From contig OZ024745.1 of assembly GCA_964016885.1 (NCBI GenBank), positions 68,448,001 through 68,512,000 on the forward strand: a stretch of DNA of 64,000 nucleotides, in the 5' to 3' direction. Numbering within the stretch: position 1 is the first letter of the stretch; each line of letters starts with the position of its first letter. Below are positions 3,902 to 58,960 of this stretch, piece by piece. A program made the position numbers and the translations under genes. The notes beneath the pieces are model-generated. The model saw only the letters and a list, made by a program, of their open reading frames with translations, ran no database searches and was not told the DNA's origin. This DNA comes from Eledone cirrhosa. Lineage: Eukaryota.

Positions 3902-4231
3902 ATGTGTGTGTGTGTGTAGATAGATAGTGAGATTATGTTCTATAATAAATGCAAATTTCTATGCGTGTATTCGTGTGGTAAATATAAGTATGGTACTTAA
4001 ATATTCAAATAAATAAACCAAAAATCAAATATGCTGTTGCAAGCTATTATTGTTCTCCCGCCATAAAAGAAATGTTACCTTTTAATCATAAGCAATACGT
4101 TATCTTGAGTGCTCCTTGAATAGAAGCTATGGAGTATCCGGGAGTCGATTAAAAAATATGCTTTATTAAAAAATCGGTTCGGATTCGAATCTCATCGAAT
4201 GGATTGGGCTTGGTTGTTTCATCAATTGTTT

Positions 4232-4615
4232 CTACGTTTGGCAAAAACCAGCAAATTTTCAAAGGAAGGTAAAGTTGATGAAATCGACCCCACTATATTA
4301 CTGGTGCTTTATTTTATCGAACCTGTAAGGATGAAAGGTAATGTTAACCTAGGGGAGATTTGAACTCAGAACGTAAAGGGCCATAACTATATGCTGCAAA
4401 GAATGTTGTCCGACGCTCTAACGATACTGCATATTCACTGGACTTAATGGTTTCTGATTTAGGCACAAGGCCAACAATTTTGGGTGTGGCCAAAGCCGAT
4501 TAAATCGACTCCAGTGTATTACTGGTACAATATTTTGTCGACGTTGTAGTGATGATAGGCATAGCTAAAATCAATGGGATTTGAACTCAGAACGTAAAGG
4601 GCTGTAACTCAATTC
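4232..4615 (-). mobile_element. Two adjacent degenerate tRNA-derived SINEs
   Basis: Reverse-strand match to the SINE consensus (gatttgaactcaga B-box region, ttttatcgac...aaggatgaaagg core). Confidence 0.75.
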
Positions 4616-4731
4616 GTTCTGGCAAATTTCAGCCATAAGACATAGTAGAGTAGAAACTATAGTAGAAATCACTTTCCCAGTATGCTACAAAGTAGGAATA
4701 AACCGGAAAAATCTTGGTTGCAAAGCAAACT

Positions 4732-8585: not shown

Positions 8586-9258
8586 TGTATCATATGTTAT
8601 TGCTTTCTTCGTATTCCCACTGCATTTTCAGTTACCTTAAATAGCAACTACACAACCATTTCTATTCTCCATATATTTCATAATGTGTTTCGCTGTAACC
8701 ATTCTTCTCTCCCCTTCTACCTTCCTATTTCGCCACTTTCTACTCTCACCCCTCTTTCTTCCCCTCCCATTCTCCCTATCTACTCTTACCCCCACTTTCT
8801 TCCTCTCCCTTTCTCCCTCTCACTTTCACCCCCTCGTCTGACCGTTTAGCAGTTCTCTTCTCACTTACAACTGCGGTGATCAGACGTGTGTCTTTTCTCT
8901 CGATTACTCGGTCTCGAACTTAAGTTCTATTATCGAGTGGTCTTGGATTTCCTACCTATAGTTGCTCGCACATTGCTCGGTTTGTTGTGTTTTTTTTCGC
9001 TGTTTTGTTACTGTTTTCTCTTTTCTTCCCTTTTGCTTTCCTTCCCTCCCTCCTTCGTTTTCCCTATAACTTATCCAGTCATTGACGCCCTGAGGTGAGA
9101 TTTCTTGTCTTTAAAGCGTAGAAATATCCTAGATCCTCAGTAGACAACTGATGAGGAAAATCCCCCCCCCCCCGTTCTTGCTTTCTTCGAATTCCCACTG
9201 CATTTTAGTTACCTTAAATAGCAACTACACAGCCATTTCTATTCTCCATTTATTTCAT

Positions 9259-9262
<4 letters not shown>
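8586..9262 (+). mobile_element. Non-coding partially tandem repeat, family J (monomer ~580 nt), carrying a permuted hammerhead
   Basis: 8600-8683 is repeated at 9178-9260. A homologous copy lies on the minus strand at ~13660-14170. Ends in (TA)n. Confidence 0.8.
9085..9154 (+). ncRNA. Candidate non-circularly permuted hammerhead (family J)
   Basis: acgc-c-ctgagg-tga-gatt-TC-ttgtct-ttaaa-gcgt-a-GAAA-tatc-ctagat-cctcag-t-agacaa-CTGATGA. Confidence 0.65.
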
Positions 9263-12132: not shown

Positions 12133-12337
12133 GTGTATATATATATATGTATATATATTTATATTTATATTTATATATATATATATATATACATATGTGT
12201 ATATATATAAATATATTTACACATATGTATATATATATATATATATATATAAATATATATATATTTGGAAGATCACTGATGAAGGACTAATTCTATTCAT
12301 ATGTAACCCATGTGCAACCACGCAGCACTCCATTTTT

Positions 12338-12661: not shown

Positions 12662-12668
<7 letters not shown>

Positions 12669-13148
12669 AAATGGGGAGAAGAATACTGCATGGTTGCACA
12701 TGGATAACATGTTATAAAATGAGTCCCTCATCAGTGATTTACCAACGGTCATAGGTATTTCATTGCATTAAAAATCATATACCTCACGTTGGCGCAATAA
12801 TAACTAAAATAAGTTATTAGGACAATTAAAACGCGTAAAGCGAGTGAGACAAGTAAACAACACAGAGGAAAGCTAACCGAAGATAGGAAAGACACAAGCT
12901 ACATAGTTATTCTATCAGTATAAGCTGGGTGAATATATGAGCGAGTAGAAAATAGACCTTTCGAGATGAATCCAATGTAAGAAAGAAGGAAAATCGTTAA
13001 CATCGCGAACGGGGGGAAGTGAGAAGGGGAGAAACCGTGAGTGAGTGAGTGGAAGTGTGAGGAAGAGGTCAGTAGAGAGAAAGTGTTAACTGACATGACA
13101 GAGGGGACGAGAGAAAGTAAGAGAAACAGAGAGAACGGGGGAGCAGTA

Positions 13149-13226
<78 letters not shown>

Positions 13227-13565
13227 AAATCGCAGTTTAGGTAAATATATGTGAAAAAATGGGGAGAAGAATACTGCATGGTTGCACATGGATAACATGT
13301 TATACAATGAGTCCCTCATCAGTGATTTACCAACGGTCATAGGTATTTCATTGCATTAAAAATCATATACCTCACGTTGGCGCAATAATAACTAAAATAA
13401 GTTATTAGGACAATTAAAACGCGTAAAGCGAGTGAGACAAGTAAACAACACAGAGGAAAGCTAACCGAAGATAGGAAAGACACAAGCTACATAGTTATTC
13501 TATCAGTATAAGCTGGGTGAATATATGAGCGAGTAGAAAATAGACCTTTCGAGATGAATCCAATA
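12662..13565 (-). mobile_element. Family I non-coding tandem element (~1.5 monomers, period 588) with two permuted hammerheads
   Basis: 12662-12977 is repeated at 13250-13565. Motifs at 12728-12797 and 13316-13385. (TA)n on both flanks. Confidence 0.85.
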
Positions 13566-13659
13566 TATATATACATATATATATATGGAAATAAATGGAA
13601 TGTTAGGTATATTTTATGTTGTGGGTGTGTATATATATATATATATATATATATTAAAA

Positions 13660-14170
13660 TATATGGAGAATAGAAATGGCTGTGTAGTTGCTATTGAAGG
13701 TAACTTAAAATGCCGTAGGAATACGAAGAAAGCAAGAACGGGGGAGGGGAGTTTTCCTCATCACTTGTCTACTGGGGGTGTCGGTCGGATATTTCTTCGC
13801 TTTAAAGACAAGCTATCTCACCCCAGGGCGTCAATAACTGGATAAGTTATTGGGAAAACGAAGGAGGGAGGGAAGGAAAGCAAAAGGGAAGAAAAGAGAA
13901 AACAGTAACAAAACAGCGAAAACAACAACAACAAACCGAGCAATGTGCGAGCAACTATAGGTAGGAAATCCAAGACCACTCGATAATAGAACTTAAGTTC
14001 GAGACCGAGTAATCGAGAGAAAAGACACACGTCCGATCGCCGCAATTGTAAGTGAGAAGAGAACTGCTAAACGGTCAGGCGAGGGGGTGAAAGTGAGAGG
14101 AAGAAAGTGGGGTAAGAGTAGATAGGGAGAAAGGGAGTGGAAGAAAGAGGGGTTCAGAGTAGAAATTAGC
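13660..14170 (-). mobile_element. Family J copy, with a mutated permuted hammerhead at 13758-13831
   Basis: Reverse complement of ~8740-9250. Core reads GTGATGA and the site reads GC instead of TC. Confidence 0.8.
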
Positions 14171-14171
14171 G

Positions 14172-14223
<52 letters not shown>

Positions 14224-20950: not shown

Positions 20951-23195
20951 TTCAGGTTATCAATAATGTAGTGATAATATATCGTTACGTTAGAGATGAA
21001 CAGCGTACGTGTAGGTTTGCTCAACGAGTATAAATTATATTCCGGAGAAAATGTATAAAAGATGAATATAAAATGAAAGTGCTTTTTTTAAAAAGGAATT
21101 TATTAGGTATTGACATATGTTTCTGTAACAGACGGAATACCTATGTATCGCTGCTTGCGTAATCATATAATGTTAGCAAGTATTCGATAGCAAATGTATA
21201 ATCAGTTGTCACTTCTTCAGAGATTTTGGATAAATTGGATAAAATCAGAAAAATTGAAGTATTTATATTAGTAATAGAGGAAGAAGAGAGGGGATAGTAT
21301 ATGACAGATGGTAATTCAATTTACTGCTAAACAAGTATATAAAGGGTTTCTAATGAGAATACCATGAGTAAATGGTTCATTTTATCTAAATAAGAATTTT
21401 TGGGAGTGCCAATTTTAATCTATACTTGACCAATTGGACAGTGGACAGGGCTGGTCATTTGGTGTAGTAGTATTAATTATAAAGTGTCAATTGGGGAAGG
21501 GGGAGATTTCGATTGTTACTGAATAACATCAATGCTAGTAGCCAGCTGGTATATGCATTAGGGAATTGAATTAAGAAATCAGAAATCTCATTTTATCTAT
21601 AGCAGTTTATATTAAATGGTAAATAATAGAAGAGTTGATAGAATTAAGACTAATAGAGAATGTTAATATCTATTTTGACAATCAAACGCTATTATATCCC
21701 ATTTAAAGTGAAATTGTTGGTTATTTTCACGCACCTGCCAAACCTTGTCTGCGAGTGTTGTTACATAACGCTGGTTTTCATGTTTTATCGAGTAACGATG
21801 TCTATAAAGGCGTGATTTGAAGGAGGTGGCTGTAGATCCCACATAGTACCACTTCTGTCTATCCGATTCGATAGTACATTTGTATACGATGTTGCGTTCA
21901 AGACACTGATTGTTCAACGGACACATTCCTGGTTGGACACAGTTACAATTATAATTTTGCGTTGTTGTATTGTCATGGATGGGTTGTTGAGGTTGCTTAG
22001 GTAGGACAGGATGTTGTTTGTTGTTTTGTGATGTTATAGCTAATGTTTTACGTGTATTGTTATGTGTTGGAAGGCGTTTATACAACCGTTTTGCGTTAAG
22101 CTTTTTTATATGTTGTTCAATATTAGGGGCGGTTGAATATGAAAGTCGAATAGTGTTAGGGTTTAAGATTTTATTATATTTATGTGATGTTGGAAAGTGT
22201 TTTTTAACTAATCGAAAGAATTGTGAGGGTAGATTGGTTTTAATAGAGTTGTTATAGACCGGGTTATACCAAATATACTCTTTACATCGCCTTCTATTTG
22301 GTGGTGTGCGACTATTATTGTGTCTATTGCGGTAGTGTATGTATGGTGGTGATTCTGTGTTATTTCTACTCCTATGGGATTTATTTTGGGTGTTTTGGTG
22401 ATCTTCGACTATATACTCTATATTATCTAGGTGTCCGGCTTTCCTAAGTGCATCATCATAATATTCGGCATGTTCTTTGAAGGTTTGTTGGTTGGACGAC
22501 AGGCGGGAGATTCTAAGAGAAACATTTCTAGGGATGGATTTAATTATAGAGAGTGGATGGTTAGAACTCGTATTTACATATTTAAGGTTCTCATTTAGTT
22601 TATGGAACGGTTTAATCGTATCTGTATTGAGATTCAAAGTAACATCAAGGAAATTGACCTCTTTGAGGTTATATTCAAATGTAATATTTAATCCTAGTTC
22701 CTTAAAAAGCTTTCTGATATTTTTACGCATCCTTTCTAAATGCTGGTTATTCATATGCTTAACTAATAGGAGCGCATCATTACGGTAGATTCCACCGTGG
22801 AGATCCTTGAATTTTCCTTGTAGTCTGTGGGTGATATAAATTCCCACAAGATCTGTTACTTCCGCCGAATCATTAGAACCCATAATAATATCAAAATTAG
22901 AAGGTCTATCTTTGCGAACCCAGTAGCTATCATCGAATTTGACTATAGTTTTCCTCGCTTCCATAATAATTTTAATTTCAGCATCCGTAAGGTCGGAATT
23001 AGCCTTAGCGAACGAAAGAGCTTCATGTAGAGTATCAGGTAAAATTGAGGAATAATATTCATCAATATCAAACTGAATAAATTTTGATTTTTTCTTATCA
23101 GTAATGTTATTAAACCATCTTATTGCTTCATGAGTGTTACCCCATAGTTTAATTTCTACTTTAACCTTAACTTGGGGGATAATTCTGTCTAGTAT
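20950..23195 (-). mobile_element. 5'-truncated Penelope-like retroelement (Naiad-like), RT + GIY-YIG endonuclease
   Basis: ORF 21663-23324 has FIQFDIDEYYSSI, MGSNDSAEVTDLVG, YRND (YRDD variant), NFLDVTL, WYNP, NTIRLSYST, CNC..CPL..C, IVYKC..YYVGST..FKSRLYRH. The first ~45 aa are flanking or SINE sequence. A degenerate HHR lies in the 3' UTR at ~21109-21223. Confidence 0.92.
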
Positions 23196-23303
23196 ATATA
23201 GTAGTGAATATATACACTGCAGTTTTAAAGAAGGGAATATAAGAATTAGTCTATATAAACAAATGAGTATATATAAAGTAGTGAATAATATAATAAAGTA
23301 AAT

Positions 23304-23490
23304 AATTGTTTCTACATATGGCACAAGGACAGCAAATTACCCAGTACATTACTGTTACTTTATTTTATCGACCCTGTAAGGATGAAAGGCAAAGTTAACC
23401 TCGCCGGGATTTGAACTCAGAACATAAAGGGGCGTAACTCTATGCTACAAAGTATGGCGTCCGACTCTCTACCGATACTGCCAATCCACC
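23304..23490 (-). mobile_element. tRNA-derived SINE
   Basis: Full-length reverse match to the SINE consensus (ggtggattggcagtatcggtagag...agaaacaatt). Confidence 0.9.
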
Positions 23491-23712: not shown

Positions 23713-24110
23713 ATGGGTGTGTATGGTTGTGTATAGAAGATTATATTAATAAAAGGAATTCCAACTTTGTCTGATTTACTCGTTTTATTTACAATTCTTT
23801 AAAATTATAATGATATTATAATGAAATAGTATGGTAGAATATTAAATGTTAAGTGTTAATTGAACAAGTACTTTCATGCTTTCGCAATCTTCAGGTTCAT
23901 ATTCTGTGGTGACAGTCAAGTTAGCAATTTTCAACTTGACTGTCACCACAGAATATGAACCTGAAGATTGCGAAAGCATGAAAGTACTTGTTCAATTAAC
24001 ACTTAACATTTAATATTCTACCATACTATTTCATTCTAATATCATTATAATTTTAAAGGATTGTAAATAAAACGAGTAAATCAGACAAAGTTGGAATTCC
24101 TTTTATTAAT
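23713..24110. mobile_element. Palindromic PLE terminal repeat (family D) with two divergent hammerheads
   Basis: 23744-23922 is the reverse complement of 23933-24110. The same sequence occurs at 48240-48465 downstream of a GIY-YIG remnant. Confidence 0.85.
23956..23994 (+). ncRNA. Minimal type I hammerhead (mirror copy at 23861-23899 minus; another at 48390-48428 minus)
   Basis: tgaac-CTGAAGA-t tgc gaaa gca t-GAAA-gtac-TT-gttca. Palindromic stem III AGTACT. Confidence 0.85.
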
Positions 24111-24129
24111 ATATATATATATATATTTG

Positions 24130-24945
24130 ACGCGTTCTTCCTCACTTTTCGTTGCTTCACCATCTTTGTTTGTTTACACTCTCGCTGTTCCCTTTATTTA
24201 CGTGTCCCAATGACTTTCTTTAGCCGTTGCTCGCACCAACCGGATGTATATGGTCTTTAAAGCGAAGAAATACCGAGGATGGTTGGAAGATCACTGATGA
24301 AGGACCAACTTTATTCATATGTAACCCATTTGCAACCACGCAGCACGTTTATTCTCATATTTACACATATAATCCCCCGCTGTGACCCGTCTATTTCGTT
24401 CTTACTGCTTCCTCTTTCTCTGTATCTTTACCCTCTCTAACAGTCACTCTCTCTGTTAGTCTCTTCCTCACCCTTCACTCACTCTCTGTTACTACCTCTC
24501 CTCCTCCTCCTTCTTCCCGTTTGACCTGTGCGTAAGTCTTTTCTTTCGCACGCTTGGCCAGGCCGGTTCCCCTTTTTTCTCTCTCTCGTCTACGATTTCA
24601 CAGAACTTATGTTCACCGAATTCACGGACTAGACTCCTTCTTCCTCCCGTTTGACCTGTGCGGAATTACTTCCTTGCTCACATTTCAACCAGGTTTGAAG
24701 GTCTTTAATCTCTCTCGTTCACGATTTCACCGAACTTATATTCATGGAAATTTGGGACTTGACTCGTACTTCCTCACTTTTCGTTGCTTCACCCTCTTTA
24801 TTTGTTTACACTCTCGCTGTTCCCTTTATTTACGTGTCCCAACGACTTTCTTTAGCCGTTGCTCGCACCAACCGGAGGTATATGGTCTTTAAAGCGAAGA
24901 AATACCGAGGATGGTTGGAAGATCACTGATGAAGGACCAACTTTA

Positions 24946-24950
<5 letters not shown>
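24130..24950 (+). mobile_element. Family I non-coding tandem element (period 632) with two permuted hammerheads
   Basis: 24130-24319 is repeated at ~24760-24950. Motifs at 24231-24300 and 24863-24932. Confidence 0.85.
24863..24932 (+). ncRNA. Candidate non-circularly permuted hammerhead (best family I copy)
   Basis: tcgc-a-ccaacc-gga-ggta-TA-tggtctt-taaa-gcga-a-GAAA-tacc-gaggat-ggttgg-aagatca-CTGATGA. Confidence 0.75.
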
Positions 24951-26585: not shown

Positions 26586-27662
<1,077 letters not shown>

Positions 27663-27721
27663 CAAATCGTACACCTTATTAAGTAAGTCCAACGCTGCTT
27701 CTTATAATGACTTCAAATTTA

Positions 27722-28770
27722 GGGCGGTGGATTGGCACCATCGGTAGAGGGTGGGCCGCCATGCTTTGCCACAAAGAGTTACGGCCCTTTATGATCTGAG
27801 TTCAAATCCCGCCGAGGTTAACTTTGTCTTTCATCCTTACGGGGTCGATAAAATAAAGTACCAGTCACGCACTGGGGTCAATTTCATCGACTTTTCCCTC
27901 CCCCCAAAATTGCTGGCCTAGTGCCGATATAAGAAACCATAATTACTTCAAATTTAGGCATAAGGCCAACAAAGTTTAGTGGGAGTGGGGAGTCGATTAT
28001 ATTGACCCAGTATTTGACTGGTATTATATGTTATCGACTCTGAGTTCAAATCCTGCCGAAGTTAACTTTGCCTTTCATCCTTACGGGGTCGATAAAATAA
28101 AGTACCAGTAATGTACTGGGTAATTGCTTCTCTTGTACCAAAAGTAGAAACAATTATAGTTTATCGACTCCGGAAGGATGAAAGGCCAAGTTGACATTGG
28201 AGTGATATACCTCAGAATTTAAAGAGCAAGGAACAAATGCCACAAAGAATTTCATCTAACTCTCTAACGATTCTGTCAATCCTCCGCCCTAAATAATTGT
28301 TTCTACTTTTGGCACGAGGCCAGCAATTACACAGTGTGTTACTGGTACTTTATTTTATCGACCCCGTAAGGATGAAAGGCAAAGTTAACCTCGGCGGGAT
28401 TTGAACACAGAATGGCAAGGGCCGTAACTCTATGCGTCAAAGCATGGCGTCCGACCCTTTACCGATACTGCCAATTTCTGCTTTAGGTACAAGGCCAAAT
28501 ATTTTTGGGGAAAGGGAAAGTCAATTAAATCGCCCCCAGTGCATTACCAGTACTTTATTCGACCCCGTAAGGATGAAAGGCAAAGATAACTTCGGCGGGG
28601 TTAGATCTCTAACAATTGTTTCTACTTTTGGCACAAGGCCAGCAATTACGCGTACATTAGTGGTACTTTATTTTATCGACCCCGTAAGGTTGAAAGGTAA
28701 AGTTAACCTCAGCGGGATTTGAACTCAGTTCGTAAAGGGACGTAACTATGCTGGAAAGTATGTCTGACCC
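27722..28770. mobile_element. Cluster of ~7 nested or adjacent tRNA-derived SINEs in both orientations
   Basis: Repeated gcctttcatccttacggggtcgataaaataaagtaccag core and tRNA-like heads (plus 27722-27942 and 28040-28157; minus 28294-28475, 28614-28770 and others). Confidence 0.85.
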
Positions 28771-30477
28771 TAATAATATACTGACTCAGAAATGAAACTA
28801 AGACTAACGGTTATTACTTTACAACTGTTACTGTTAAATATACATTATCGCAAAGGGATGGATGTATCAGATGCTAGCCCATCCTAAGTAATTACAATGA
28901 TGATAATGATTAAATTATTTAGAAAACAATCAACGCCATTTAAGACTGACTTTCATGACGTTTATTTAGTTCCATTAACAATTCTGTCAGGAATCAATTA
29001 TCATAAATCTAAAGTCATTCTGTGGAATTTTAATTTTTCTGCACACAAAGTTATTCCGCTCAATGTACTAATGACAAGAATTTGATTCCCAGCATTGTAT
29101 TATATACTTGAGTAAAACACTTTATTTCAAATAGTTCTAGTCCAATCAGCTGGGGAGAAAATTAGTTGTAACTGTAATTCAAAAGTCTAGCCTCGTCACA
29201 CACTGTGTAACACTGAATTTCCTTGAGAACTCTCTCAAGAGTAGAGGAATTTGTGGGGTGCTCGGCCACTTGCACGCCAATTTCATGAGTAGGCTGTTCC
29301 GTTGATTATACAACTGGAACACTCCACGACGGGACCGACGGAGGTCCAGCACACACGCACACACACAAATGATTATTCGATGTTTAGTCATATAAGCGTG
29401 CTTACAATGAAATGGAATCCACTTAAAGGTATTCGTCACTTCACGTCTGTTATCTTCTAGCATCTGATTAATTCAAACGAACTACTCAACAAATGAGCAA
29501 CTATCTGGCTCCAGGTTTAACCATGTAACTTGATAGTATAGTTTAACCTCAACCACACACACACACTCTCTCTTTCTCTTCCTCATCTAAACAACAAGTC
29601 TCTCTATTTAAAGAGAAATATAACAAAGAACAAGAGCCTCTTCAAGGAACGTCTCGACCTCCTTGCACTTTCCTTAATACTTGGCTTAGCTTCGTTATTC
29701 TGGAGTGTTCACGATAAGAGTTAACAATGGTTTTCTCATGCACTATTAATAAATTGAATTTCATGTTTCTTCATTTTGTTGTTGCTTCTTCCATGTTTTA
29801 ATTGCTAATATGAAGACAATGGACGAAAGAGAAAGCATAAATTAAATGATAGCTATTTATTGTAACATGGCTCCAAGTGTTGATTTGATATATCAAAAGA
29901 AAAGAAAATTGAATTTTCTCTCTAGTGGTTTCGGTTTGATTATTAAAGCAATTGAGAAATCTTTCATACTGGTTCTTTCTGTAAGCTCTACAACCTTTCA
30001 GGAGCTCATATCACTGAATTAATCTTAATATAGATCAGTTTAATTTTATATTATCATAGTAGTGGTGTCCTTTAGTCCCAGACCAACTCTGATTGAATAG
30101 AAGTATTCCAGCAATGATCATTCTCTCTATTTATATATTTACTATGCTACATTATACTGTATCTTTTCGTCAACATGCTGCAATTTAAGAGAGAATTTAA
30201 CTGTCGTTTTCAACTAGTTATATAGCCATTCATGTGCTTTCTATCTGGCACGTATGTTATTTTGTTGATGCTTTTGCTGTTGATGTCTAGGTTAACGATT
30301 ATTATAGCAGAACTATGGCTGGTTATACTGATCCTAATCAACCTGAATTTCGGGTGAAATATAGGATCGAAGTTTGTCCTTCCTCTAAAATACTGGGTGC
30401 TTATTGAAGCCGATTCCGCCGTTATTTTTAGAATGTCGTGTGACAGCATAAGTCTCTGGTTGGCTTATATCCCTGTG

Positions 30478-36282: not shown

Positions 36283-36882
36283 GGAACGAGTAGGACCTCG
36301 ACGGCTGAGCTCAAGCCGTTTCGTTGGCTAATTCTGGACTAAATGAACATTTTTATCCTGGTAAATGAATAGCCCAGCTTCTCAGGGGGTAATATTCCAT
36401 ATATGGTAAAAGTGATTGTCACAACGATTGGTCAAAAGTTTGTTGTTGAGACACATAATTCTATCATGGCATTTTGTGGAAGGAGGGGGTAGCTGAACTT
36501 GCCAGTAGAAGAAAGATGGAGAGGGAGTGGAGGAAACCCAGTCGTGCGTTGAAAGTGACGACTACAGCAGAATCCTAAGGATAAGAGGTCAAGAGGGGGA
36601 GGGAGGGAGGAAGTCGAAACAATAAGTAGATTTATATGGAGTAAATCTATATAGAAAAATAAGAATGTTAAAAATATAAAAAAACACAATTTCTGGTTAC
36701 TATTCCCCTACCACAATCATCAAATCTCTCACTAGACTATAGAAAAATTTAATAGGTGGGGCGGGATACTAAATACGAGATTGTAGTGAAAGAATTTTAT
36801 GAGTTAGTAGTACTCGGCCTAATCTATCTTACAATGACAAGTCAACAAGTAGGGGGCCTACAAATCTCCCCCTCCGAACCCT

Positions 36883-38871
36883 ATGCTCTCACCCTTCGAG
36901 AATGACCTTTTCCAACTGGTCAAGAGCATTAAATTCAAACCCAGACACAACAGATTCCTACAAAAACTCCGTAGCAACTTAACAGAGTATGATAACACCA
37001 ATGACATCATGGTGCACTCGGATAAAACTGTTAACCTCTACTTCGTCAACCCCGACAAATACCACACACTGATCAGGAGCAGCCTAAACTCCACCTATAA
37101 AAAGGCTAACCACTCATGCATCGAGGACATAAATCGAGATGGACAACAAATTAACTCCAGCCTCGGGGTCGCCGACCGCACGGAACCCCTAGACCCACAG
37201 ACTCCCTACTTCACACTGAAGGACCACAAATCCGATTTCGACCGTAAACCATCTATCAGGCTTATAAACCCAACGAAGTCCGACATAGGGAGAATCATGA
37301 AAAAAATCCTAGACCGCGTTATACCAAAAGTTAAGCAAAACGCCCAAGAAGTAATCTCATGGTTCAGCAATATGGAGGACAAACGAGACACAAAATTCAT
37401 CCAGTTTGACATAGAGAGTTACTATGCTTCAATTACCTTACCGCTCCTTACGGTCGCCTTGGACTTTGCCGAGACACTTGCGCCCATCACCGACCAGGAA
37501 AGAAATATCATCCTCCACACCAGGAAGACAGTCCTACTTTTTGACAACTCCAAATGGATAAAGAGAGCTCCGACTCCCCCTTCGACGTCAGTATGGGCGC
37601 GACGGATTCGGCCGAGGTCACAGATCTTATAGGATTATTCCTACTAGTTAAACTCACCGATATGTTTCCTGCATTTGGCGGTGGATTGTACCGTGATGAT
37701 GGGCTCCTTACCCTTAAAGGGTAACACCCCAGTAGTACAGACCGGGTCCGTAAACACTTAATCAGCTTCTTACGCGACTGGGGATTTTAAATAACCCTAC
37801 AAACGTCCCTAACCCGAGTAAACTCCCTGGACGTTACCCTTGACCTCGATAATGATCTGTACTACCCATACAGGAAAGCAAACGATAACCTGCACTACAT
37901 CCACCGCCGGTCAAACCATCCTAGAAATATCACCAATAACCTGGTTAAAAAACATCTTCCTCCGCATATCTCGTTTGTCCGCTAATGAGCAGATATTTGA
38001 TGAACATGCGCCTTATTACAACCAGGCCCTCAGGCGGAGTGGCTTCTGGGAGGAAATATCCTACTCTCCAGCTTCCATTAGCGGAACCATCAGGCGACAC
38101 CGCCGCTCACGCAACGTAACATGGTTCAATCCTCCCCACAACGCCGAGGTGACAACACCTATCGGAAAAATCTTCTTTAGGCTCATCGAAAAACACTTCC
38201 CACTACAACACCGCTACCACAACACAATCAACAAAAATACCATCAAACTCTCCTACAGTACCACACCTAACTTTGCACAAAACATCGTCTCCTCTAACAA
38301 CAAAAAACTCAACTCCTATGGAAGAAATAACCTAAATAGCAGTGGAGAGCCGACCAGGAGGTGCAACTGTTCTGATGGATCCATTTGCCCCCTCGACAAC
38401 AGATGCAGAGATCGTAATGTGATCTACCAGTGCAACGTGAGGACGGACACCTCCAAGAAAGCTTATATAGGATTAACCGCTTGTGACTTCAAGACCCGAC
38501 TATACCAACACAGACATACTTTCCGAAACCCGGCCCGGCGTCACGCCACTACACTTTCGGGCCACATCTGGGACCTTAAAGATAACAATACAACCTATAA
38601 TCTCACTTGGAGCTTACTGTCCAGAGCCAACTCTTACACGGGAGGACGCCGTCCGTGTAACTTAGGCTCGGAGGAAACATTACAAATGCTGTTTTCGATG
38701 GACCAACTCCTAAACAAAAAAGACGAACTGGTAACTGCATACAAACACAGATTGCGTAGGACTTACCTCGTACTCAAACCCCATAATGACCCGGGGGGGG
38801 GGGGGGTAGACGGGGGCTGTAACACCCCACTTGCCGACTTTGTAATGGGTAACCCCTGCTTACAAAGGTAG
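36883..38871 (+). pseudogene. PLE reverse transcriptase + GIY-YIG endonuclease, frameshifted
   Basis: TLKDHK..F..KPSIRLINPTKSDIG, FIQFDIESYYASI; a shifted frame gives FDVSMGATDSAEVTDLIG and YRDD (37689-37700) with TAA stops; then TWFNPP, NTIKLSYST, CNC..CPL..C, VIYQC..AYIGLT..FKTRLYQH. Confidence 0.92.
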
Positions 38872-41324: not shown

Positions 41325-41586
41325 CGTGTGTGTCTTTATACTCACATACACCAACATAAACATGTATCAGGATCCCTTTATAATCCTCTAGATGTTATCT
41401 TTTATTAAGATTTTATCACCTCACCAACATCTAATAGCCTTAGTCTGATCACCATCAATGTCGTCATTCCCAATATCAACATCATCACTATAAAGCAATC
41501 ACCTTTACTATCGTTTTTCTCCCATGAGGACCAAAATTACAACTCGTTTATCGCATAGATCGATCTCAATATATATCTATTTTTGA

Positions 41587-41805
41587 GGGCGTTGGATTGG
41601 CAGTATCGGTAGAGCATCGGAGCACATCCTTTATGGCATAGAGTTACGGCCATTTACGATCTGGGTTCAAATTCTGCCGAGGTTAACTTTTCCTTCCATC
41701 CTTACGTAGTCGATAAAATAAAGTACCAGTAAAGCACTGGAGTCGATTTAATCGACTTACCCCTCCCCCCAAATTGTTGGCATTGTGACTAAATCTGAAA
41801 TCAAT
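41587..41805 (+). mobile_element. tRNA-derived SINE, long subfamily
   Basis: Full head, core and the extra gtcgatttaatcgac...cccc segment. Confidence 0.88.
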
Positions 41806-41896
41806 ATATATCTATTTCTATTAACCAGATTATTTTTTAAATGGAAATAATAACATAGGTCCATTCCTTTCCATATCTGAACACAACCGATATCTT

Positions 41897-45131: not shown

Positions 45132-45409
45132 CGTGATTTTTTTTGTCGTGTCTAGCAGTCATTAATAGAAACAGGTTCGTTCCCAGTTATAAATAGGTTA
45201 TAGTATTAGTTTCACAGACATGACAGTGTAGTTAAGTAGTAACGGCTATATAGGTTTGTAGAAATTATGAAACAAATAATAAACTAGTAAGTTCAAGAAA
45301 TGAAAATTTCATGTGATTGTTTAAGATAAATACAGTATGGGAGGGTTACTAGTTCTTGCCAAATTACAATATGTAATATATAGAAACTTCATTATTAAGG
45401 TAAACAATG

Positions 45410-45586
45410 GGCGGTGGATTGGCAGTATCGGTAGAGGGTCGGACGCTATGTTTTGACGCTTAGAGTTACGGCCCTTGCCATTCTGAGTTCAAATCCCGCC
45501 GAGGTTAACTTTGCCTTTCATCCTTACGGGGTCGATAAAATAATGTACCAGTAATACACTGGTTAATTGTGCCAAAATTAGAAACA
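45410..45586 (+). mobile_element. tRNA-derived SINE with 19-bp target-site duplication
   Basis: attattaaggtaaacaatg at 45391-45409 and 45587-45605. A-box-like tggcagtatcggtaga and B-box gagttcaaatcc. Confidence 0.93.
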
Positions 45587-45929
45587 ATTATTAAGGTAAA
45601 CAATGTTTTATTTATGGAAATAGAAACATTGTCAGGTGAGAGAAAAAAAGGCGTTTTTAATATGGAAAGTTATGTATATTTATAGATAGGGGAAGCTCAA
45701 GTAGGAAACATTATAGGATATTAGGAAAGAAAATATGGACATGTTTAGCTGGACGTATGATAACACACACGAGAGTGGTTGTGTGTGTGTGTGAGTGTGT
45801 GAGTGTGTGTGTATGTGTGTGTGAATTATAAGCCTTTAGGTCGTTCATGTCAAGAGAACAACTATTCCAACTCCTTAAGTAATCTTCAAACAATGGAAAT
45901 ACTAAATTACTAAAGATGTTTTTTGTAAT

Positions 45930-48231: not shown

Positions 48232-48729
48232 TAAATATACACGGGTGTGTATGATTGTGTATAGAAGATTATATTAATAAAAGGAATTCCAACTTTGTCT
48301 GATTTACTCGTTTTATTTACAATCCTTTAAAATTTATAATGGTATTAGAATGAAATAGTATGGTAGAATATTAAATGTTAAGTGTTAATTGAACAAGTAC
48401 TTTCATGCTTTCGCAATCTTCAGGTACATAATGTGTGGTGACAGTCAAGTTTGCAATTTTCAACTGTAATGAGATGGGTAAATTTTGTACCTTATATACA
48501 GTGAAAAGTGGCTCCAGAATGCTAAATCTTGCAAACTGTATTTCGACCAATCGGTGTGTAGTTTGACTGAATTACTAAAGCTGATTGGTTTAGGCGTCAC
48601 GGTTGGTTGAGCATGTCTAACGACCACTAATTGATCCTATCCAAAGCATCAATTGTTTTGCTATTTTTAGAAATGATGAAAATAGCATTTTCTAGTAATC
48701 ATCACCATCAACATCACTTTTATTATTAT

Positions 48730-48915
48730 TGCGGTGGATTGGCAGTATCGGTAGAGGCTCGGACGCCATGCTTTCCAGCATAGTTACGTCCCTTTACGAT
48801 CTGAGTTCAAATCCCGCCGAGGTTGACTTTGCCTTTCATCCTTACGAGGTCGATAAAATAAAGTACCAGTAATGCACTGGTATTTGCTAGCCTTGTGCCT
48901 AAAGTAGAAACAATT
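48730..48915 (+). mobile_element. tRNA-derived SINE
   Basis: Near-consensus full-length copy. Confidence 0.9.
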
Positions 48916-49596
48916 ATTATTGTTGTTGTTGTTGTTAGTGGTCGTAGTCGACATGGTCGTAGTCATAATCATAGTAGGAGTAATCCCCATTAATATTGTT
49001 CATTTAGCTTGGGTTTGAATTTATCAATAAAATTCTTTTCTTTGATTTTTCTCTTGATTTCACTTGGGCTGTGTAATTTGTAGAATGGGAATATTATAAA
49101 TATTCCCTGACCACATGTTGCTAGATGGTTACTTAGGGGTATCTGACGGAGATTTGGGTCTCTGATTTGCTGTCGGTGTACCCGTGCACGTTCCGATAGT
49201 GCATTTCCTGTTTGACCGACATATAGTTCTTCACATTTAATTCGGGCATTTAATGCAGTAAATTAGATTTCTGCTTTTGCAGTTCATATTTGCATTTGGG
49301 AATATTTTTCCAGTTTTTGTTTTCATATATTGACCGGCGTGTATGGATTGACATGTGCCGCATCGACTATCATTGCATTTAGATACAGTGAATGATTGAT
49401 CTTTGTTGTTAAGGTCAAACTTTGCTTTTGTTAATAATTGCTTCAAATTTTTCGGCTGTCTTTTACTAAGAGTCAAAGATCGATCTGTGATTAAGCCTTT
49501 TAATTCATTACTTTGAGCAATGATCGGTAGGTTTGCTTTGGCAGTGTTGAAGATATTCTGGTGACATGGGTTGTGTGTCATTATAAATGGTATGAC

Positions 49597-49777
49597 GGTG
49601 GATTGGCAATATCGGTAGAGGGTCGGACGCCATGCTTTCCAGCATAGTTACGTCCCTTTACGATCTGAGTTCAAATCCCGCCGAGGTTGACTTTGCCTTT
49701 CATCCTTACGGGGTCGATAAAATAAAGTACCAGTAATGCACTGGGTAATTGCTGGCCTTGTGCCTAAAGTAGAAACA
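49597..49777 (+). mobile_element. tRNA-derived SINE inserted in PLE coding sequence, ~17-bp TSD
   Basis: attataaatggtatgac at 49580-49596 and 49778-49794. Confidence 0.93.
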
Positions 49778-50147
49778 ATTATAAATGGTATGACCAGTTC
49801 TTGGTTTCTTCTTCCTTGGGTTGTCCTAAGTTGTTGTATAGGTATTTTCATAGCCCGCTGTATACCATTTTCTATAAGTAGAGATGGGTATTTTTGTTTG
49901 AGCAAACCAAAAATTCTCTTAGTTCTGTTAGGCGGGGCTGTGTGTGTGCGTGTGTGTGTGTGTGTGTGTGGGGGGGGGGGCATCGCGTAACATTCCATAT
50001 TTAGGTATCCGAAACACAAATCCTGTTTATTTAGTAATGTATATTTATTATAACTGTGAAGCTATAGCAGTGATGTGAGGGCCAAGAATTTTGTGATAGA
50101 ACAGGGCACTCGGGTCACTCGTTATGGCTTCACAACTATAATACACA

Positions 50148-50178
<31 letters not shown>

Positions 50179-50206
50179 GCACACACACACATATATATAT
50201 AATAAT

Positions 50207-50394
50207 AATTGTTTCTACTTTAGGCACAAGGCCAGCAATTACCCAGTGCATTACTGGTACTTTATTTTATCTACCCCGTAAGGATGAAAGGCAAATTCAA
50301 CCTCGGCGGAATTTGAACTCAGATCGTAAAGGGACGTAACTATGCTGGAAAGCATGGCGTCCGACTCTCTACCGATACTGCCAATCCACCGCCC
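50207..50394 (-). mobile_element. tRNA-derived SINE
   Basis: Near-consensus reverse copy. Confidence 0.9.
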
Positions 50395-50489
50395 TTATAA
50401 TAATAATACTAAAAGTGACGATTTGTTGTCTTCATTTCGTTTATTGAGTATCGGCGCGCCTTTCGCTATTGATCAGCTCAATATATATA

Positions 50490-53479
50490 TATATATAATA
50501 TATAAGATCAAAAGATGGTTAAATGAGTTCCATGTATTTTATTATGCGCATTTCAAAAACAAATATCATCATGCAATAACATTTGTGTTTTCATCAGAGA
50601 AAATAGGAGGACATGATATGAAGGTTAAAAAACACTTGTGGATAGTGCAGTTTTAAATCAACATATGAAAAGTAGTTTTAGATTGATGTGTGATATTGGG
50701 AAAAAAAAAAAAAATGTTTGAGGGGGGGGGGTTGGAAAGGATGAAAAAGAGGAGGAGATGAGAGTAAAAAGTGGAGGGGGAGGAGTATAGTGAGGAAGGA
50801 TGAGATAGGAGGAGAGATGGGTGATAGAGAGAGAGAGATAGCTTTTATAACTGAGAAAAATATATTGTTTTACATAGAGAGGTTGAAAAAACCGTTGGAA
50901 GATAATGTATAAATTAAAAGAATTTGAAAATTTACGAAGAGAAATATAATGTAAAGTTAAGGTTTGTATATTGAAGGGTTTAATAATATGTGCGATGAAA
51001 AGAAATTGTTAATATGTATTAAGAATAATATTTAAGGGTTTAATAATATGTGCGATGGAAAGAAAATGTTAATATGTATTAAAAATAATATTTAAGGGTT
51101 TAATAATATGTGCGATGGAAAGAAAATGTTGATATGTATTATTAAAAAAAACAGAAGTGATGTAAGTAAGGATATATTGTGAGATGGGCATGAATAAGTT
51201 AGATGAAAGGGAGAAAAGAATAATGAATAGAGGATGAATAATCTAACGTCAAAAAATGTTTATGTTTACGAAGGATTTTTTCAAGGTGATATGAAGTAAG
51301 AATATAGTGTATGTGTAATAATTGTTTTTATGTTAGGCACAGTGAGAAAAGGTACAGATTAGGGGTTAGAAATTAGGAGTGATGTAGAATATAATAAATA
51401 TAATAAATAACTTTGAAATAAGGTAGAAAGATGGGTATATTTTTAAAGAAGTATATATATATATATATATATGTGCCTTTGAGAAAAGGATTCTGAATTG
51501 ATAAAGTTTATCGTATTAGCTGTATACTTTATGGAAAGTTCTGTGGAATTTATGCAAGCAGATAGTAAATAAGTCAGTGCGTCTATTTATTATAGAATCT
51601 AAATTAGAAATAATGGTAAATTTTTCATTTAGACAGAGATTGCAAGTCGTAGATAGAGAACTGTTCAAGTATGATGAAGCAGAGGAAACCTTTTTCTAAG
51701 AGATGTTATATTTAATATTTTTGTCTTTCAAGGACCATATGAGTTCTAAGAGAGCCGTGTTGGTTCTTTTAAGTTTATATTTAAAAGACGAATGATGATT
51801 ATAAAGATGAGCTTTAAAGGAGGTGGAAGTGGAGCCAAAATAGGTGAAGGAATTGGTGTCAGTTATAACTGACACCAATTCCTTCACCTATTTTGGCTCC
51901 ACTTCCACCTCCACTTCCACCTCCACTTCCACCTCCTTTAAAGCTCGTCTTTACAATCATCATTCGTCTTTTGAAGGAGGTGGAAGTGGAGGTGGAAGTG
52001 GAGCGAAAATATGTGAAGGAATCGGTGTCAGTTATAACTGACACCAATTCCTTCACCTATTTTGGCTCCACTTCCACCTCCTTTAAAGCTCATCTTTATA
52101 ATCATCATTCGTCTTTTAAATATAAACTTAAAAGAACCAACACGGCTCTCTTAGAACTCATATGGTCCTTGAAAGACAAAAATATTAAATATAACATCTC
52201 TTGGAAAAAGGTTTCCTCTGCTTCATCATACTTGAACAGTTCTCTATCTAAGACTTGCAATCTCTGTCTAAATGAAAAATTTACCATTATTTCTAATTTA
52301 GATTCTATAATAAATAGACGCACTGACTTATTTACTATCTGCTTGCATAAATTCCACAGAACTTTCCATAAAGTATACAGCTAATACGATAAACTTTATC
52401 AATTCAGAATCCTTTTCTCAAAGGCACATATATATATATATATATACTTCTTTAAAAATATACCCATCTTTCTACCTTATTTCAAAGTTATTTATTATAT
52501 TTATTATATTCTACATCACTCCTAATTTCTAACCCCTAATCTGTACCTTTTCTCACTGTGCCTAACATAAAAACAATTATTACACATACACTATATTCTT
52601 ACTTCATATCACCTTGAAAAAATCCTTCGTAAACATAAACATTTTTTGACGTTAGATTATTCATCCTCTATTCATTATTCTTTTCTCCCTTTCATCTAAC
52701 TTATTCATGCCCATCTCACAATATATCCTTACTTACATCACTTCTGTTTTTTTTAATAATACATATCAACATTTTCTTTCCATCGCACATATTATTAAAC
52801 CCTTAAATATTATTCTTAATACATATTAACATTTTCTTTCCATCGCACATAATATTAAACCCTTAAATATTATTCTTAATACATATTAACAATTTCTTTT
52901 CATCGCACATATTATTAAACCCTTCAATATACAAACCTTAACTTTACATTATTTTTCTCTTCGTAAATTTTCAAATTCTTTTAATTTATACATTATCTTC
53001 CAACGGTTTTTTCAACCTCTCTATGTAAAACAATATATTTTTCTCAGTTATAAAAGCTCTCTCTCTCTCTCTATCACCCATCTCTCCTCCTATCTCATCC
53101 TTCCTCACTATACTCCTCCCCTCCACTTTTTACTCTCATCTCCTCCTCTTTTTCATCCCCCCCCCCCTCAATTTTTTTTTTTCCCAATATCACACATTAA
53201 TCTAAAGCTACTTTTCATATGTTGATTTAAAACTGCACTATCCACAAGTGTTTTTTAACCTTCATATCATGTCCTCCTATTTTATCTGATGAAAACACAA
53301 ATGTTATTGCATGATGATATTTGTTTTTGAAATGCGCATAATAAAATACATGGAACTCATTTAACTATCTTTTGATCTTATATATTATATATTATGTATA
53401 CTCCAGTCCTACAAACTGTAGAGTGCTTCTTATCCGATATCTACATTGCTTTATTGTACTACAATAAAACTCACCTCCT

Positions 53480-56160: not shown

Positions 56161-57309
56161 TATGTGTGTGTTTGTGCGTGTGTGTATGTATGTCTGTGTG
56201 TATGTGAGTGTGAGTGTAATTTACATATGTATATATGCAATTATTACAGAATAAATTCTGAAGTGTTTCACATATTTTCCCAGTTTAATTACTAATCTGT
56301 ATTGCTATTTCTTAATTAGCTGTGTCATATTTGGAATTGTGGTGTACAAGCCCAACTTCATCAATAATTATATGTATGAACCTAAAGCTAGAGTTTGGTT
56401 GGTGTATCTGCAGATTTCTCATCAGTTCACAACAGATGTTTTCTTTTTAAATTTATCTTTAACATTATATTAACATCTACCGGTCAACTGATATCCACCA
56501 GTGTTTCAGCCAGATTGTCTATAGCTTAGGTTAAGGTCACTGGAACATTAATATGTCGAAGGATTTTGCACACAAAAGAATGTTTTCATGTAATCCACCC
56601 AGACTGTAGCCAAATTCTTATGTACACGATCTGAGGAATTCTCAGCCATGTGCTCATTTATTTTATGAGTAGGTTGTTTCTTTGATCAAACAATTGGAAC
56701 TCTCGTCGACGAAACCGATGGAGACACAACAAATATTTTTTGTTGGTGAGAGATCTAGTTAATGTTTTGTTTGCATGTGATGAACACCATCGGCTAATTG
56801 ATAATCTCCTGAAACATTGACTTCGGTGGGGTTTGGACTCATAACACAAAGAGCCGAACTAAATATTGATTTCTAATGTAAGCTCAAGGCAATCAAATTT
56901 TGGGTGAGGATGAAGTTGATTAACTCCAACCCTAGTACTTGACTGGTACATTATTTTATCGACTCCTGAAGGATGAAAGGTTTGAATGCAGAATGTAAAG
57001 AGCCATAAAAGATACCCCGATGGCATTTTACTTGACGCTCTAATAATTCTGCCAATCCACTACCCTTCCGCTGAAATAAACATTGCAAGGCATTTCGCCC
57101 GTTGCTCTAACCTTTCCGCCAATTGCCGACATATAATATCGTTAACAACACAATATTTAAATAGTCCGTTGACAGAGAGATTTAACATCAATGTTAAACA
57201 CTTATCTTAATGCGTTACAAAAAGATTAAGACGACTTTTGCAGGATTGGCGCTAATCTATGTAACATCGCATAATCCTTAGAGAGAAACTCTCACGTGCT
57301 TAGATAGAT

Positions 57310-57555
57310 AATTGTTTCTACTTTTGGTACAAGGCTAGCAATTATCTCAGTGTATTACTGGTACTTTACTTTATCAACCCCGTAAGGATGAAAGGCAAAG
57401 TTAACGTCGGCGGGATTTTAACTCAGACGATAAAGGGCCGCAACTCTTTGCTGCAAAAAGGCGGTGAAGTGGTTAGTGCTAAGTGCTATATGTCACAGTG
57501 TTCTGCAATCTGAGTTCAAATCTATCCGACATCAACTTTGCATTTCAACCAGTTC
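57310..57555. mobile_element. Head-to-head SINE fragments
   Basis: Minus copy 57310-57460 and degenerate plus copy 57460-57555. Confidence 0.7.
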
Positions 57556-57557
57556 GA

Positions 57558-58335
<778 letters not shown>

Positions 58336-58609
58336 TATCGACATCTATCTATAGGTGTATGGCTCCATATATTGTCAAAAATATCAAACTTTTCAAGTTC
58401 TTTTGTTCCATTTATTATTCCTTCGCTATATCTGATGATGGAGATACTATTCAGTCGTTCATGGCGCTGATAGAGTTTATACCATTGAGTTTAAATTCTA
58501 ATATCTTATTTAATCTTCACAAACACTCTCGTGTATTGTCCCCAATGCCTTGGGCCTTTTGTGGCCTTTGTGGTCAATATAATAAATTATTATTGTTATT
58601 ATTATTATT

Positions 58610-58960
58610 GTTGAGTTCAAATCCCACGGAGGTTAGCTTTGCCTTTCATCTTTACGGGGTCGATTAAATAAAGCACCAGTAATACACCGGGGTCGATTTA
58701 ATTGACTTTCCCCGCCCCTTCAAATTGCAGACCTTGTGCCTAAAGTACAAACAATTATCATTATCGTGTTCAAATCCCACCAGTGCATTACTGGTACTTG
58801 TTTTTATCGACCCCGTAAGAATGAAAGGTAAAGCTAGCCCCTAGCTTTACCTTTCATTCTTACGGGTCAATAAAAACAAGTACCAGTAATGCACTGGTGC
58901 CAATTTTGTCGATTTTCCAACTCCCATCAAATTGCTGGCCATATGCCAAGAGTAGAAGTA
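58610..58960 (+). mobile_element. SINE fragments including a fold-back SINE core (58778-58899)
   Basis: ~59-bp arms around a cccc loop, derived from the SINE core. Confidence 0.8.

Follow-up and report, generated by a model that had tools for sequence, protein, structure and literature searches.

In hammerhead ribozymes of types I-III, the three conserved blocks S (stem III, U-H, stem I), G (GAAA, stem III) and C (stem I, CUGANGA) follow one another in the orders CGS, GSC and SCG around a nested three-way junction. Eckert, Friedrich, Weinberg and Weinberg (2023; PMC10085705) described non-circular permutations, among them type SGC (HRIMA-1 and the SGC variants) and type CSG (CSG-1 and CSG-2), and ribozymes of both types cleave in vitro at 0.004-0.19 per minute. 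In type SGC, as presented in the accessible text, stem II comes directly after CUGAnGA, a linker of ~3 nt leads from stem I to stem II, a further helix joins these two stems on their other sides, and the ends of the RNA lie between that joining helix and stem III. In type CSG, the RNA begins with block C and its stem I and strut strands, which pass into stem II without interruption; a stem II strand, a strut strand and block S then run on continuously into block G. The authors took the blocks as uninterruptible, and their list of six hammerhead layouts rests on this premise; their descriptors need CUGAUGA(U)G, then stem II, and CGAAA. All SGC examples given in the available part of the paper are metatranscriptomic, and the genomes of known organisms are credited there with nothing beyond one weak bacterial GCS candidate.

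Animal non-LTR retrozymes carry type I hammerheads and were found with type I descriptors (PMC7229834; 10.64898/2026.07.22.740005), the only descriptors mentioned in the accessible text of the study of Li, Clavereau and Pollet (2026). [quoted passage not shown] Naiads, a group of Penelope-like elements, show insertion into (TA)n, 5' truncation, partial tandems and inverted 5' copies (Craig et al. 2021; PMC8557442). They were reported there, as far as the available text goes, to be without canonical hammerheads, some being labelled HHR_core or HHR_half_core, and cephalopod Naiads were described as remnants.

Layout of the motif and its copies in the window

We analyzed a stretch of 64,000 nt from Eledone cirrhosa (contig OZ024745.1, positions 68,448,001 to 68,512,000; hereafter the window), and we establish here the fold of a recurrent motif, its conservation, its copy number and its genomic arrangement. 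Judged from its sequence, the motif has the core of a hammerhead, with the blocks in S-G-C order. It is a circular permutation of the set formed by SGC, CSG and GCS and represents a fourth way of opening that set, since its order results when the two final strands of SGC are placed in front, or when the three initial strands of CSG are shifted to the end. From 5' to 3', P0, the P1 hairpin, P2, the strut, three linking bases, stem III, U-H and stem I make up the first half, and a 3-nt linker, P2, GAAA, stem III, six linking bases, the strut, stem I, CUGANGA and P0 the second (Table 1). The P1 hairpin is optional and is missing from families B1 and B2.

The motif resembles type SGC in block order, in the ~3-nt linker from stem I to stem II, in the helix that joins these stems on their other sides and in core size (PMC10085705). 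It differs in that a kink-turn-like loop closes the gap left open in SGC between strut and stem III, the stem II and strut strands lie upstream, and the RNA exits after A9 via P0, which usually has P1 next to it. Block C is interrupted, and the ends are at P0, the strut 5' strand entering stem III by a 3-nt link. The continuous run of stem II strand, strut strand and block S, followed by block G, is shared with type CSG, whereas block C comes last in the motif, separated from stem II by P0 and P1. With its S-G-C order, the motif falls outside the nested three-way junctions of types I-III. In a circle, P0, as the exit helix of the RNA, would have the role that stem I has in type I. A precedent is the pseudoknot (PK) hammerhead (Zhan et al. 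2024; PMC11300833), in which the G8/G12 mechanism is retained despite an additional helix and a stem II region that forms a pseudoknot; its extra stem-loop, however, sits on helix I and pairs with loop II in a pistol-like manner, and the accessible text describes no helix after A9. Because the descriptors of Eckert et al. need stem II after CUGAUGA(U)G, they would miss the motif. In a search of mainly open full text, we found this layout nowhere described, nor any account of Naiads with permuted hammerheads, and the available text of PMC6765202, PMC11300833, PMC13725137 and PMC10162972 contains no such layout; PMC13725137 cites Weinberg et al. 2015 for hammerhead variants with extra helices, which may bear on novelty.

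Table 1. Parts of the focal putative ribozyme motif and further copies and elements in the window (window coordinates)
Feature	Position	Strand	Remark
Focal motif, full extent	24836..24937	+	~102 nt
P0, 5' strand	24836..24839	+	partner 24934-24937 (strand after A9); closes the domain, RNA entry and exit
P1 hairpin	24840..24861	+	7 bp, 8-nt loop; best pair E=0.007 (tree-based test)
P2, 5' strand (stem II body, from upstream)	24863..24867	+	partner 24893-24897; best pair E=0.08
Strut helix, 5' strand	24868..24873	+	partner 24913-24918; joins distal stem II to distal stem I
Kink-turn-like loop, non-bulged strand	24874..24876	+	sequence signature only
Kink-turn-like loop, opposite strand	24907-24912	+	3-nt bulge, then GA
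Block S	24877..24889	+	stem III 5' strand 24877-24880, U16.1 24881, A17 24882, stem I 5' strand 24883-24889
Predicted cut of focal copy	24882	+	3' of A17
Block G	24890..24906	+	3-nt linker, P2 3' strand, 11.1 (24898), G12-A13-A14-A15.1 (24899-24902), stem III 3' strand
Block C, interrupted	24913..24937	+	strut 3' strand, stem I 3' strand 24919-24925, C3-A9 core 24926-24932; nucleotide after A9 is 24933, then P0 3' strand
Host element of focal copy	24127..24948	+	no coding sequence; 5'-truncated partial tandem (period 632 nt) flanked by (TA)n tracts
Upstream tandem copy	24204..24305	+	632 nt from focal copy; one stem III mismatch; predicted cut after 24250
Ribozyme copy	58181..58282	+	3' end of truncated element (~57833-58293) with inverted fragment at its 5' end
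Ribozyme copy, family G3	9058..9160	+	in element 8596-9261
Ribozyme copy, family G3, defective	13752..13858	-	in element 13657-14173; G at 16.1 and position 3
Ribozyme copy, family G1c	12723..12823	-	second of tandem pair (period 588 nt; element 12664-13562)
Ribozyme copy, family G1c	13311..13411	-	first of tandem pair with 12723..12823
Ribozyme copy, family G1b	26716..26817	-	second of tandem pair (period 527 nt; element 26656-27491); canonical 10.1:11.1 pair
Ribozyme copy, family G1b	27243..27344	-	first of tandem pair with 26716..26817; P0 damaged (2/4)
Isolated motif 3' fragment	12265..12328	+	block C and tail alone, between (TA)n tracts

A preliminary description of the window had listed nine copies of the motif, eight as segments of 70 nt and one of 74 nt, by the start of which we refer to them below; all nine were recovered at the same coordinates and on the same strands. 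The motif is in fact ~102 nt long, starting 27 nt further upstream and ending 5 nt further downstream, because P0 and P1 had been overlooked, and the copies sort into four subfamilies rather than the two repeat families first proposed. Neither the kink-turn-like loop nor the retrozyme and Naiad context figured in that description, and the transcript it suggested (24850-24945) is without the P0 5' strand and half of P1. It had also claimed four covarying helices. The strut and stem I have all of their pairs (6/6 each) in all nine copies; stem III and the upstream stem II, our P2, are complete (4/4 each) in seven only, with 3/4 pairs at 9085 and 24231 for stem III and at 26721 and 13758 for P2. 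P0 has 4/4 pairs in eight copies and 2/4 in the one at 27248, and unconstrained RNAfold formed it in six of the nine, the focal copy not being among them. Pairing of the strand after A9 with the one before G12, as in a classical stem II, amounts to no more than one of four pairs in any of the nine copies. Of the 17 families analyzed below, 16 allow these two strands at most two contiguous pairs, and one allows three.

The hammerhead core (C3-U4-G5-A6-N7-G8-A9 and G12-A13-A14-A15.1) is intact in eight of the nine window copies. The copy at 13758, already called mutated, is defective because of a G at 16.1 and a G at position 3. Position 17 is A or C in all nine, as had been stated, and the focal copy has an A-A mismatch at 10.1:11.1. 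The window is rich in dinucleotide repeats (the genome is of 3.0 Gb), and several ordinary type I hammerheads also occur in it.

A kink-turn consists of a 3-nt bulge, then G-A and A-G pairs, between two helices (PMC5061560). The loop between strut and stem III looks kink-turn-like in sequence: the signature, a 3-nt bulge and then GA opposite GA in the strut/stem III linkers, is present in 111 of the 168 copies analyzed below and in 9 of their 17 family consensi.

Copy number and covariation

The pattern GAAATANC-N8-24-CTGAYGA matched the genome 19,066 times, against 367 matches for a reversed control. Two further patterns, with other stem III sequences, gave 2,026 matches (control, 1), partly overlapping the first set, and 91 matches (control, 0). 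By these sequence matches, we estimate that about 20,000 short repeats in the genome carry the motif. A random sample of 200 kb contained two copies, in agreement with the genome-wide density. In contigs from three sequencing runs of one sample, the family has U at 11.1 in most of the depth. Four copies are identical over 121 nt on three contigs, and the 41 matches listed are all at least 98% alike; identical copies across contigs indicate that the spread was recent. Comparison with Rfam, suggested in the preliminary description, gave no match for the motif region (Rfam 15, 24100-24945, up to E=10). At the gathering threshold nothing was returned for the motif in the window and nine loci, and there was no hammerhead among the 150 matches listed of 397 weak Rfam matches in the window. 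By eye, none of ten pattern matches in metagenome contigs (nine) and viral contigs (one) had the helices.

To assemble a copy set, 311 raw matches were reduced to 206 distinct sequences with a filter on stems I and III, to 184 untruncated ones and finally to 168, which were placed in 17 families; the 16 singletons left out were taken for truncated, recombined or chance sequences. Since the 184 copies did not give a usable global alignment with MAFFT, each family was aligned separately, and P0 and P1 were brought into register manually, family by family. The pre-filter used stems I and III and U16.1, and the evidence for those three is thus partly circular; likewise, the search patterns demanded core words, and family-wide invariance of the core is therefore not independent evidence.

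For 28 of the 32 pairs that we propose, canonical pairing is seen in 88% or more of the 168 copies. With kinship ignored, strands from the same family form Watson-Crick pairs at frequencies of 0.82-0.97, versus 0.43-0.66 for strands from different families, in all six helices. Compensatory changes occur in all six helices across the 17 families, P0 being statistically the weakest. U16.1, worth one point in the filter, is present in 161 of 168 copies, and H17, a position outside any filter, is not G in 166 of 168. We also applied a tree-based test, in which substitutions were shuffled over the branches of a tree built from 73 dereplicated copies. Of 2,850 column pairs ranked, the first nine are all proposed pairs, as are 13 of the first 15; only two pairs reach E<0.05 and six E<0.15, and no pair of P0 does better than E=3.75. 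Covariation at 10.1:11.1 is not significant in this test.

When 36 copies, drawn from 10 of the 17 families, were aligned with MAFFT by sequence alone, 93.3% of cells fell into pairs, compared with 28-46% for slid controls, and both sides changed in 20 of the 32 pairs. For the strut, these figures are 94.9% paired and five of six pairs changing on both sides. RNAalifold recovers P1 and the strut alone.

These 168 copies in 17 families, together with published Naiad elements judged by eye, bear out the architecture that had been proposed from the window: the non-circular S-G-C order, the replacement of a stem II strand by one from upstream, the strut helix and the short linker from stem I to stem II. 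They are also consistent with the predicted cleavage site after A24882. Rearranged hammerheads from computational screens, mentioned in the preliminary description, are indeed on record: Eckert et al. (PMC10085705) published the S-G-C order and demonstrated cleavage.

Host repeats and the 3' ends of Naiad elements

In all ten family groups compared, the repeats are short: shared sequence ends 100-200 nt past the motif and fades over ~500-900 nt upstream of it. Tandem pairs recur, with periods of ~450-800 nt for intact pairs and of 527, 588 and 632 nt in the window; elements are located at (TA)n, and inverted 5' fragments mark several of them. The window elements are non-coding and under ~800 nt, unlike autonomous Naiads, which have an ORF with an N-terminal GIY-YIG nuclease and a C-terminal reverse transcriptase (RT), although (TA)n insertion, 5' truncation, partial tandems and inverted 5' fragments are common to both. 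From these sequence features, the arrangement of the repeats is that of non-autonomous Penelope-like repeats. We found no Penelope-like coding match within the monomers inspected, Pfam returned nothing for any of eight window ORFs, and tblastn of window ORFs against the sampled loci revealed no consistent linkage. Penelope-like ORFs of the window resemble, by eye, a Hydra-like protein of the Naiad file, and a Hydra-type enzyme is a possible helper for mobilisation.

The repeats also resemble animal non-LTR retrozymes, being short, non-coding, tandem or dispersed, low in GC, present in thousands of copies, with one hammerhead per unit and a proposed Penelope-like origin. They differ in carrying a non-circularly permuted motif instead of a type I hammerhead, and in their monomers of ~450-800 nt, which are pyrimidine-rich and weakly paired in contrast to the smaller, highly self-paired retrozyme circles. 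The one monomer that was folded shows no unusual self-pairing (z=-1.04, 20 shuffles).

We judged by eye the last 300-450 nt of 53 of the 54 Naiad consensi in the supplement of PMC8557442, arthropod ends with core words being left out of the counts. Six of the 53 3' ends show the wiring of the motif: Naiad_Bfor, Amil, Aacu, Anas, Obim and Ovul, from Beroe (a ctenophore), three Acropora corals and two Octopus species, with sequences that differ. Six nematode ends are of type CSG, with covarying stems, which places CSG and the form of our motif within one retroelement clade; in the remaining 41, neither form was discernible by eye. In the Acropora Naiads, P0 (6 bp) comes directly after A9, P1 is present, P2 has 6 bp and runs up to G12, and the strut, stem III and stem I have 10, 9 and 6 bp, respectively. 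By eye, the coral, ctenophore and octopus Naiads have an upstream G opposite C11.1, with P2 reaching G12. The Octopus Naiads carry the kink-turn signature, and the eight letters of their P1 loop are those of families G1c, G2a and G2b; stem I of the Beroe Naiad has two pairs only.

Naiad-type RT sequences survive in the Eledone genome as remnants, called Naiad-type by eye from their motifs. A protein search gave 153 matches, all of them fragments and most with stops, which agrees with the description of cephalopod Naiads as remnants (PMC8557442). The Naiad RT motif pattern had 27 genomic matches, ~7 of which are from one decayed family, and an octopus-Naiad-like motif pattern had three, one of them a decayed copy without an upstream ORF. 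In 5 of 30 loci fetched, a related S-G-C motif lies 603-1338 nt downstream of a decayed Naiad-type RT on the same strand, and a sixth Naiad RT locus has a degraded S-G-C motif (BLAST). The motif at these RT remnants has no clear P2. Among seven Naiad-linked copies, one of them from another locus, the core has C3-G8 in one and U3-A8 in six, a covariation known from natural hammerheads (Perreault et al., PMC3088659).

Alternative readings and significance

Taking these sequence comparisons together, we consider it likely that the motif is a self-cleaving hammerhead inherited from Naiad-type 3' ends and now present in thousands of retrozyme-like non-autonomous repeats. Activity of at least some family members seems highly probable, and useful activity of the focal A-A copy is slightly favored. 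As in type SGC, the strut and the 3-nt linker would keep stems I and II next to each other. In a tandem transcript, cleavage would follow H17 in both copies (24250 and 24882) and free a monomer of 632 nt, which could be circularised by a host ligase and copied into (TA)n by a Penelope-like RT/GIY-YIG nuclease acting in trans. Such copying would leave partial tandems, 5' truncations and inverted 5' fragments.

The junction beside the core may be wired differently from our proposal, a possibility that we hold to be real but the less probable one. Block C would then be unbroken: the base after A9, or the one past a one-base bulge, would pair with 11.1 in a stem II of 1-3 bp, beyond which P0, P1 and P2 would meet in a three- or four-way junction. 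This concerns the junction only and may apply to some families but not to others. In its favor, 11.1 can pair with the nucleotide after A9 in 9 of the 17 family consensi. Genome-wide, copies of the GYGA type have R:U 7,503 times and R:A 1,050 times, so that the focal copy with its A-A mismatch belongs to a minority. U follows A9 in 1,222 copies and goes with A at 11.1 in 97 of 100 among the matches listed. Families G5a and G6a-c could also form a classical stem II of 2 bp after a bulge, and natural hammerheads with a stem II of one or two pairs are known (PMC3088659). Against it, 11.1 can instead pair with the base before P2, on the upstream strand, in 8 of 17 families, and the Naiads have the upstream G opposite C11.1 and, in corals, P0 adjoining A9, as described above. 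The U:A change is perhaps one event in one clade and is not significant. Counting either position, 11.1 has a canonical partner in 100 of 168 copies and 14 of 17 families, and is without one in 68 copies, including the consensi of G1a (the focal family), G2e and G3.

That a subfamily without a canonical 10.1:11.1 pair spread recently could also mean that the hammerhead-derived fold no longer cuts, and serves as a 3' recognition or priming signal for a Penelope-like RT or, through its kink-turn, as a protein scaffold. The position of the motif, always near the 3' end, the weak structure of the monomer and the fact that Naiads proliferate well without canonical hammerheads (PMC8557442) fit such a role. 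We nevertheless regard it as unlikely, since the cleavage site and the core retain their identities throughout 17 families and three phyla, G is avoided at H17, and C3-G8 switches to U3-A8 as a pair, none of which a binding signal alone would predict. Tandem pairs are common, and cleavage as dimers has been described for (minimal) Penelope hammerheads (PMC6765202), so that neighboring copies might swap domains and build an ordinary type I-III hammerhead as a dimer or multimer. This is very improbable, given that the strand after A9 has 0-3 contiguous pairs with the strand before G12 in any combination of copies, that there is no palindromic stem III loop, and that P0, P1, P2 and the strut would be left unexplained. 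Finally, the families are related and few pairs are individually significant given the tree, as would be expected if the resemblance had arisen by chance in an ordinary repeat and the helices merely reflected the shared ancestry of a few sequences. With the top-ranked column pairs all predicted, slid controls failing, and the wiring recurring by eye with unrelated letters in ctenophore, coral and octopus elements, we give this explanation almost no weight.

Most likely, then, the motif is a hammerhead that is active and of a layout so far unreported, and it is also the ribozyme that Naiads were thought to be without. If it cleaves, CUGANGA and stem II are separable, against the premise of the six-layout list, and non-circularly permuted ribozymes are present in animal genomes, here in ~20,000 copies. 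That Naiads seemed to have no hammerheads would find a candidate answer in descriptors blind to the layout of the motif, and we predict that hidden retrozymes have been overlooked by type I searches. The occurrence of CSG and of the form described here in one clade would offer a natural case of permutations arising via tandem or circular intermediates. We give even chances to a broader, joint reading, in which Naiads across animals carry non-circularly permuted hammerheads as their missing ribozyme, CSG in nematodes and, in ctenophores, corals and octopuses, a seventh layout in which block C is opened internally by a multi-way junction, and in which the ribozyme outlived its parent in Eledone and now drives at least 17 circular-RNA retrozyme families. 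The same reading would have the cephalopod form braced by a natural kink-turn, with some junctions able to branch-migrate between on and off states or to respond as switches to a protein that binds kink-turns. With a kink-turn, and with an exit helix inside its core, such a ribozyme would also provide a new scaffold for protein-controlled RNA switches.

3' ends of Naiad elements

Among the consensus sequences of Naiads, a group of Penelope-like retroelements, in the PMC8557442 supplement, the nematode elements Nbra 1-3, Hcon, Hpol, and Asuum carry at their 3' ends, as judged by eye, hammerheads of the non-circular type CSG. Their stems covary, and their strut (the helix tying distal stems I and II) is long. 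PMC10085705, from 2023, gives only two natural examples of this order. In the ostracod and spider Naiads of the supplement (Dst 1, 2, and 4; Smim), GAAA lies upstream of CUGACGA and the strand following the core pairs with upstream sequence; the cleavage-site strand (block S) was not made out in the supplement passages giving these ends.

Read by eye in the same consensus sequences, Naiad-1_Movir terminates in a twister-like motif, and many bivalve and hemichordate Naiads, along with some hydrozoan ones, end in a different conserved structured motif, free of hammerhead words. Both motifs are possibly other ribozymes occupying the same Naiad position.

S-G-C motifs and their junctions

A further motif of S-G-C order is attached to decayed Naiad-type RT remnants (loci L287, L295, L303, L306, L310, L292, and L160). 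Most copies have a U3-A8 core. The linker between stem I and GAAA forms a hairpin, which takes the place of a clear P2, the stem II formed with an upstream strand. In motif families G5a and G6a-c (e.g., L229, L214, L218), all four arms of the junction between P0 (the closing helix after A9), the P1 hairpin, and P2 contain GG and CC dinucleotides; these would allow branch migration between the upstream stem II form and a 2-bp classical stem II form, making the junction a possible conformational switch.

Penelope-like sequences in the window

Apart from the S-G-C copies, hammerhead-like motifs of the ordinary type I kind occur at several places, and several are minimal with a short stem III, as is typical of Penelope-like terminal repeats. 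A high-copy repeat of ~150-190 nt is present in both orientations at more than 12 places.

Features of the window (type I-like motifs are located by the position of C3)
Feature	Position	Strand	Basis
Penelope-like RT/GIY-YIG frame	21663-23336	-	
Penelope-like RT/GIY-YIG frame	36853-38871	+	
Penelope-like RT/GIY-YIG frame	49237-49647	-	
Penelope-like RT/GIY-YIG frame	51869-52384	+	
Type I-like motif	7420	+	
Type I-like motif	25796	+	
Type I-like motif	30908	+	
Type I-like motif	31786	+	
Type I-like motif	31636	-	
Type I-like motif	40879	+	
Type I-like motif	53286	+	
Type I-like motif	20443	+	by eye
Type I-like motif pair	23961/23894	+/-	by eye
Type I-like motif	46337	+	by eye
Type I-like motif	46830	+	by eye
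Type I-like motif	8202	-	by eye
Type I-like motif	50597	-	by eye
~150-190-nt repeat	23299-23490, 27717-28771, 4224-4617, 41583-41810, 45409-45598		
~150-190-nt repeat, further	48720-48920, 49596-49790, 50202-50403, 57305-57461, 58605-58960, and others		

Positions 50777-53121 form a near-perfect palindrome (arms of ~1.2 kb, 99% complementary) with a GIY-YIG fragment at its centre, which looks like an inverted Penelope-like insertion. A Pfam search with the RT/GIY-YIG frames of the window gave no match; compared by eye, they are near a Hydra-like protein. Enzymes of this Penelope-like RT/GIY-YIG type, coded in the window, are a candidate trans-acting family for the short repeats that carry the S-G-C motif.
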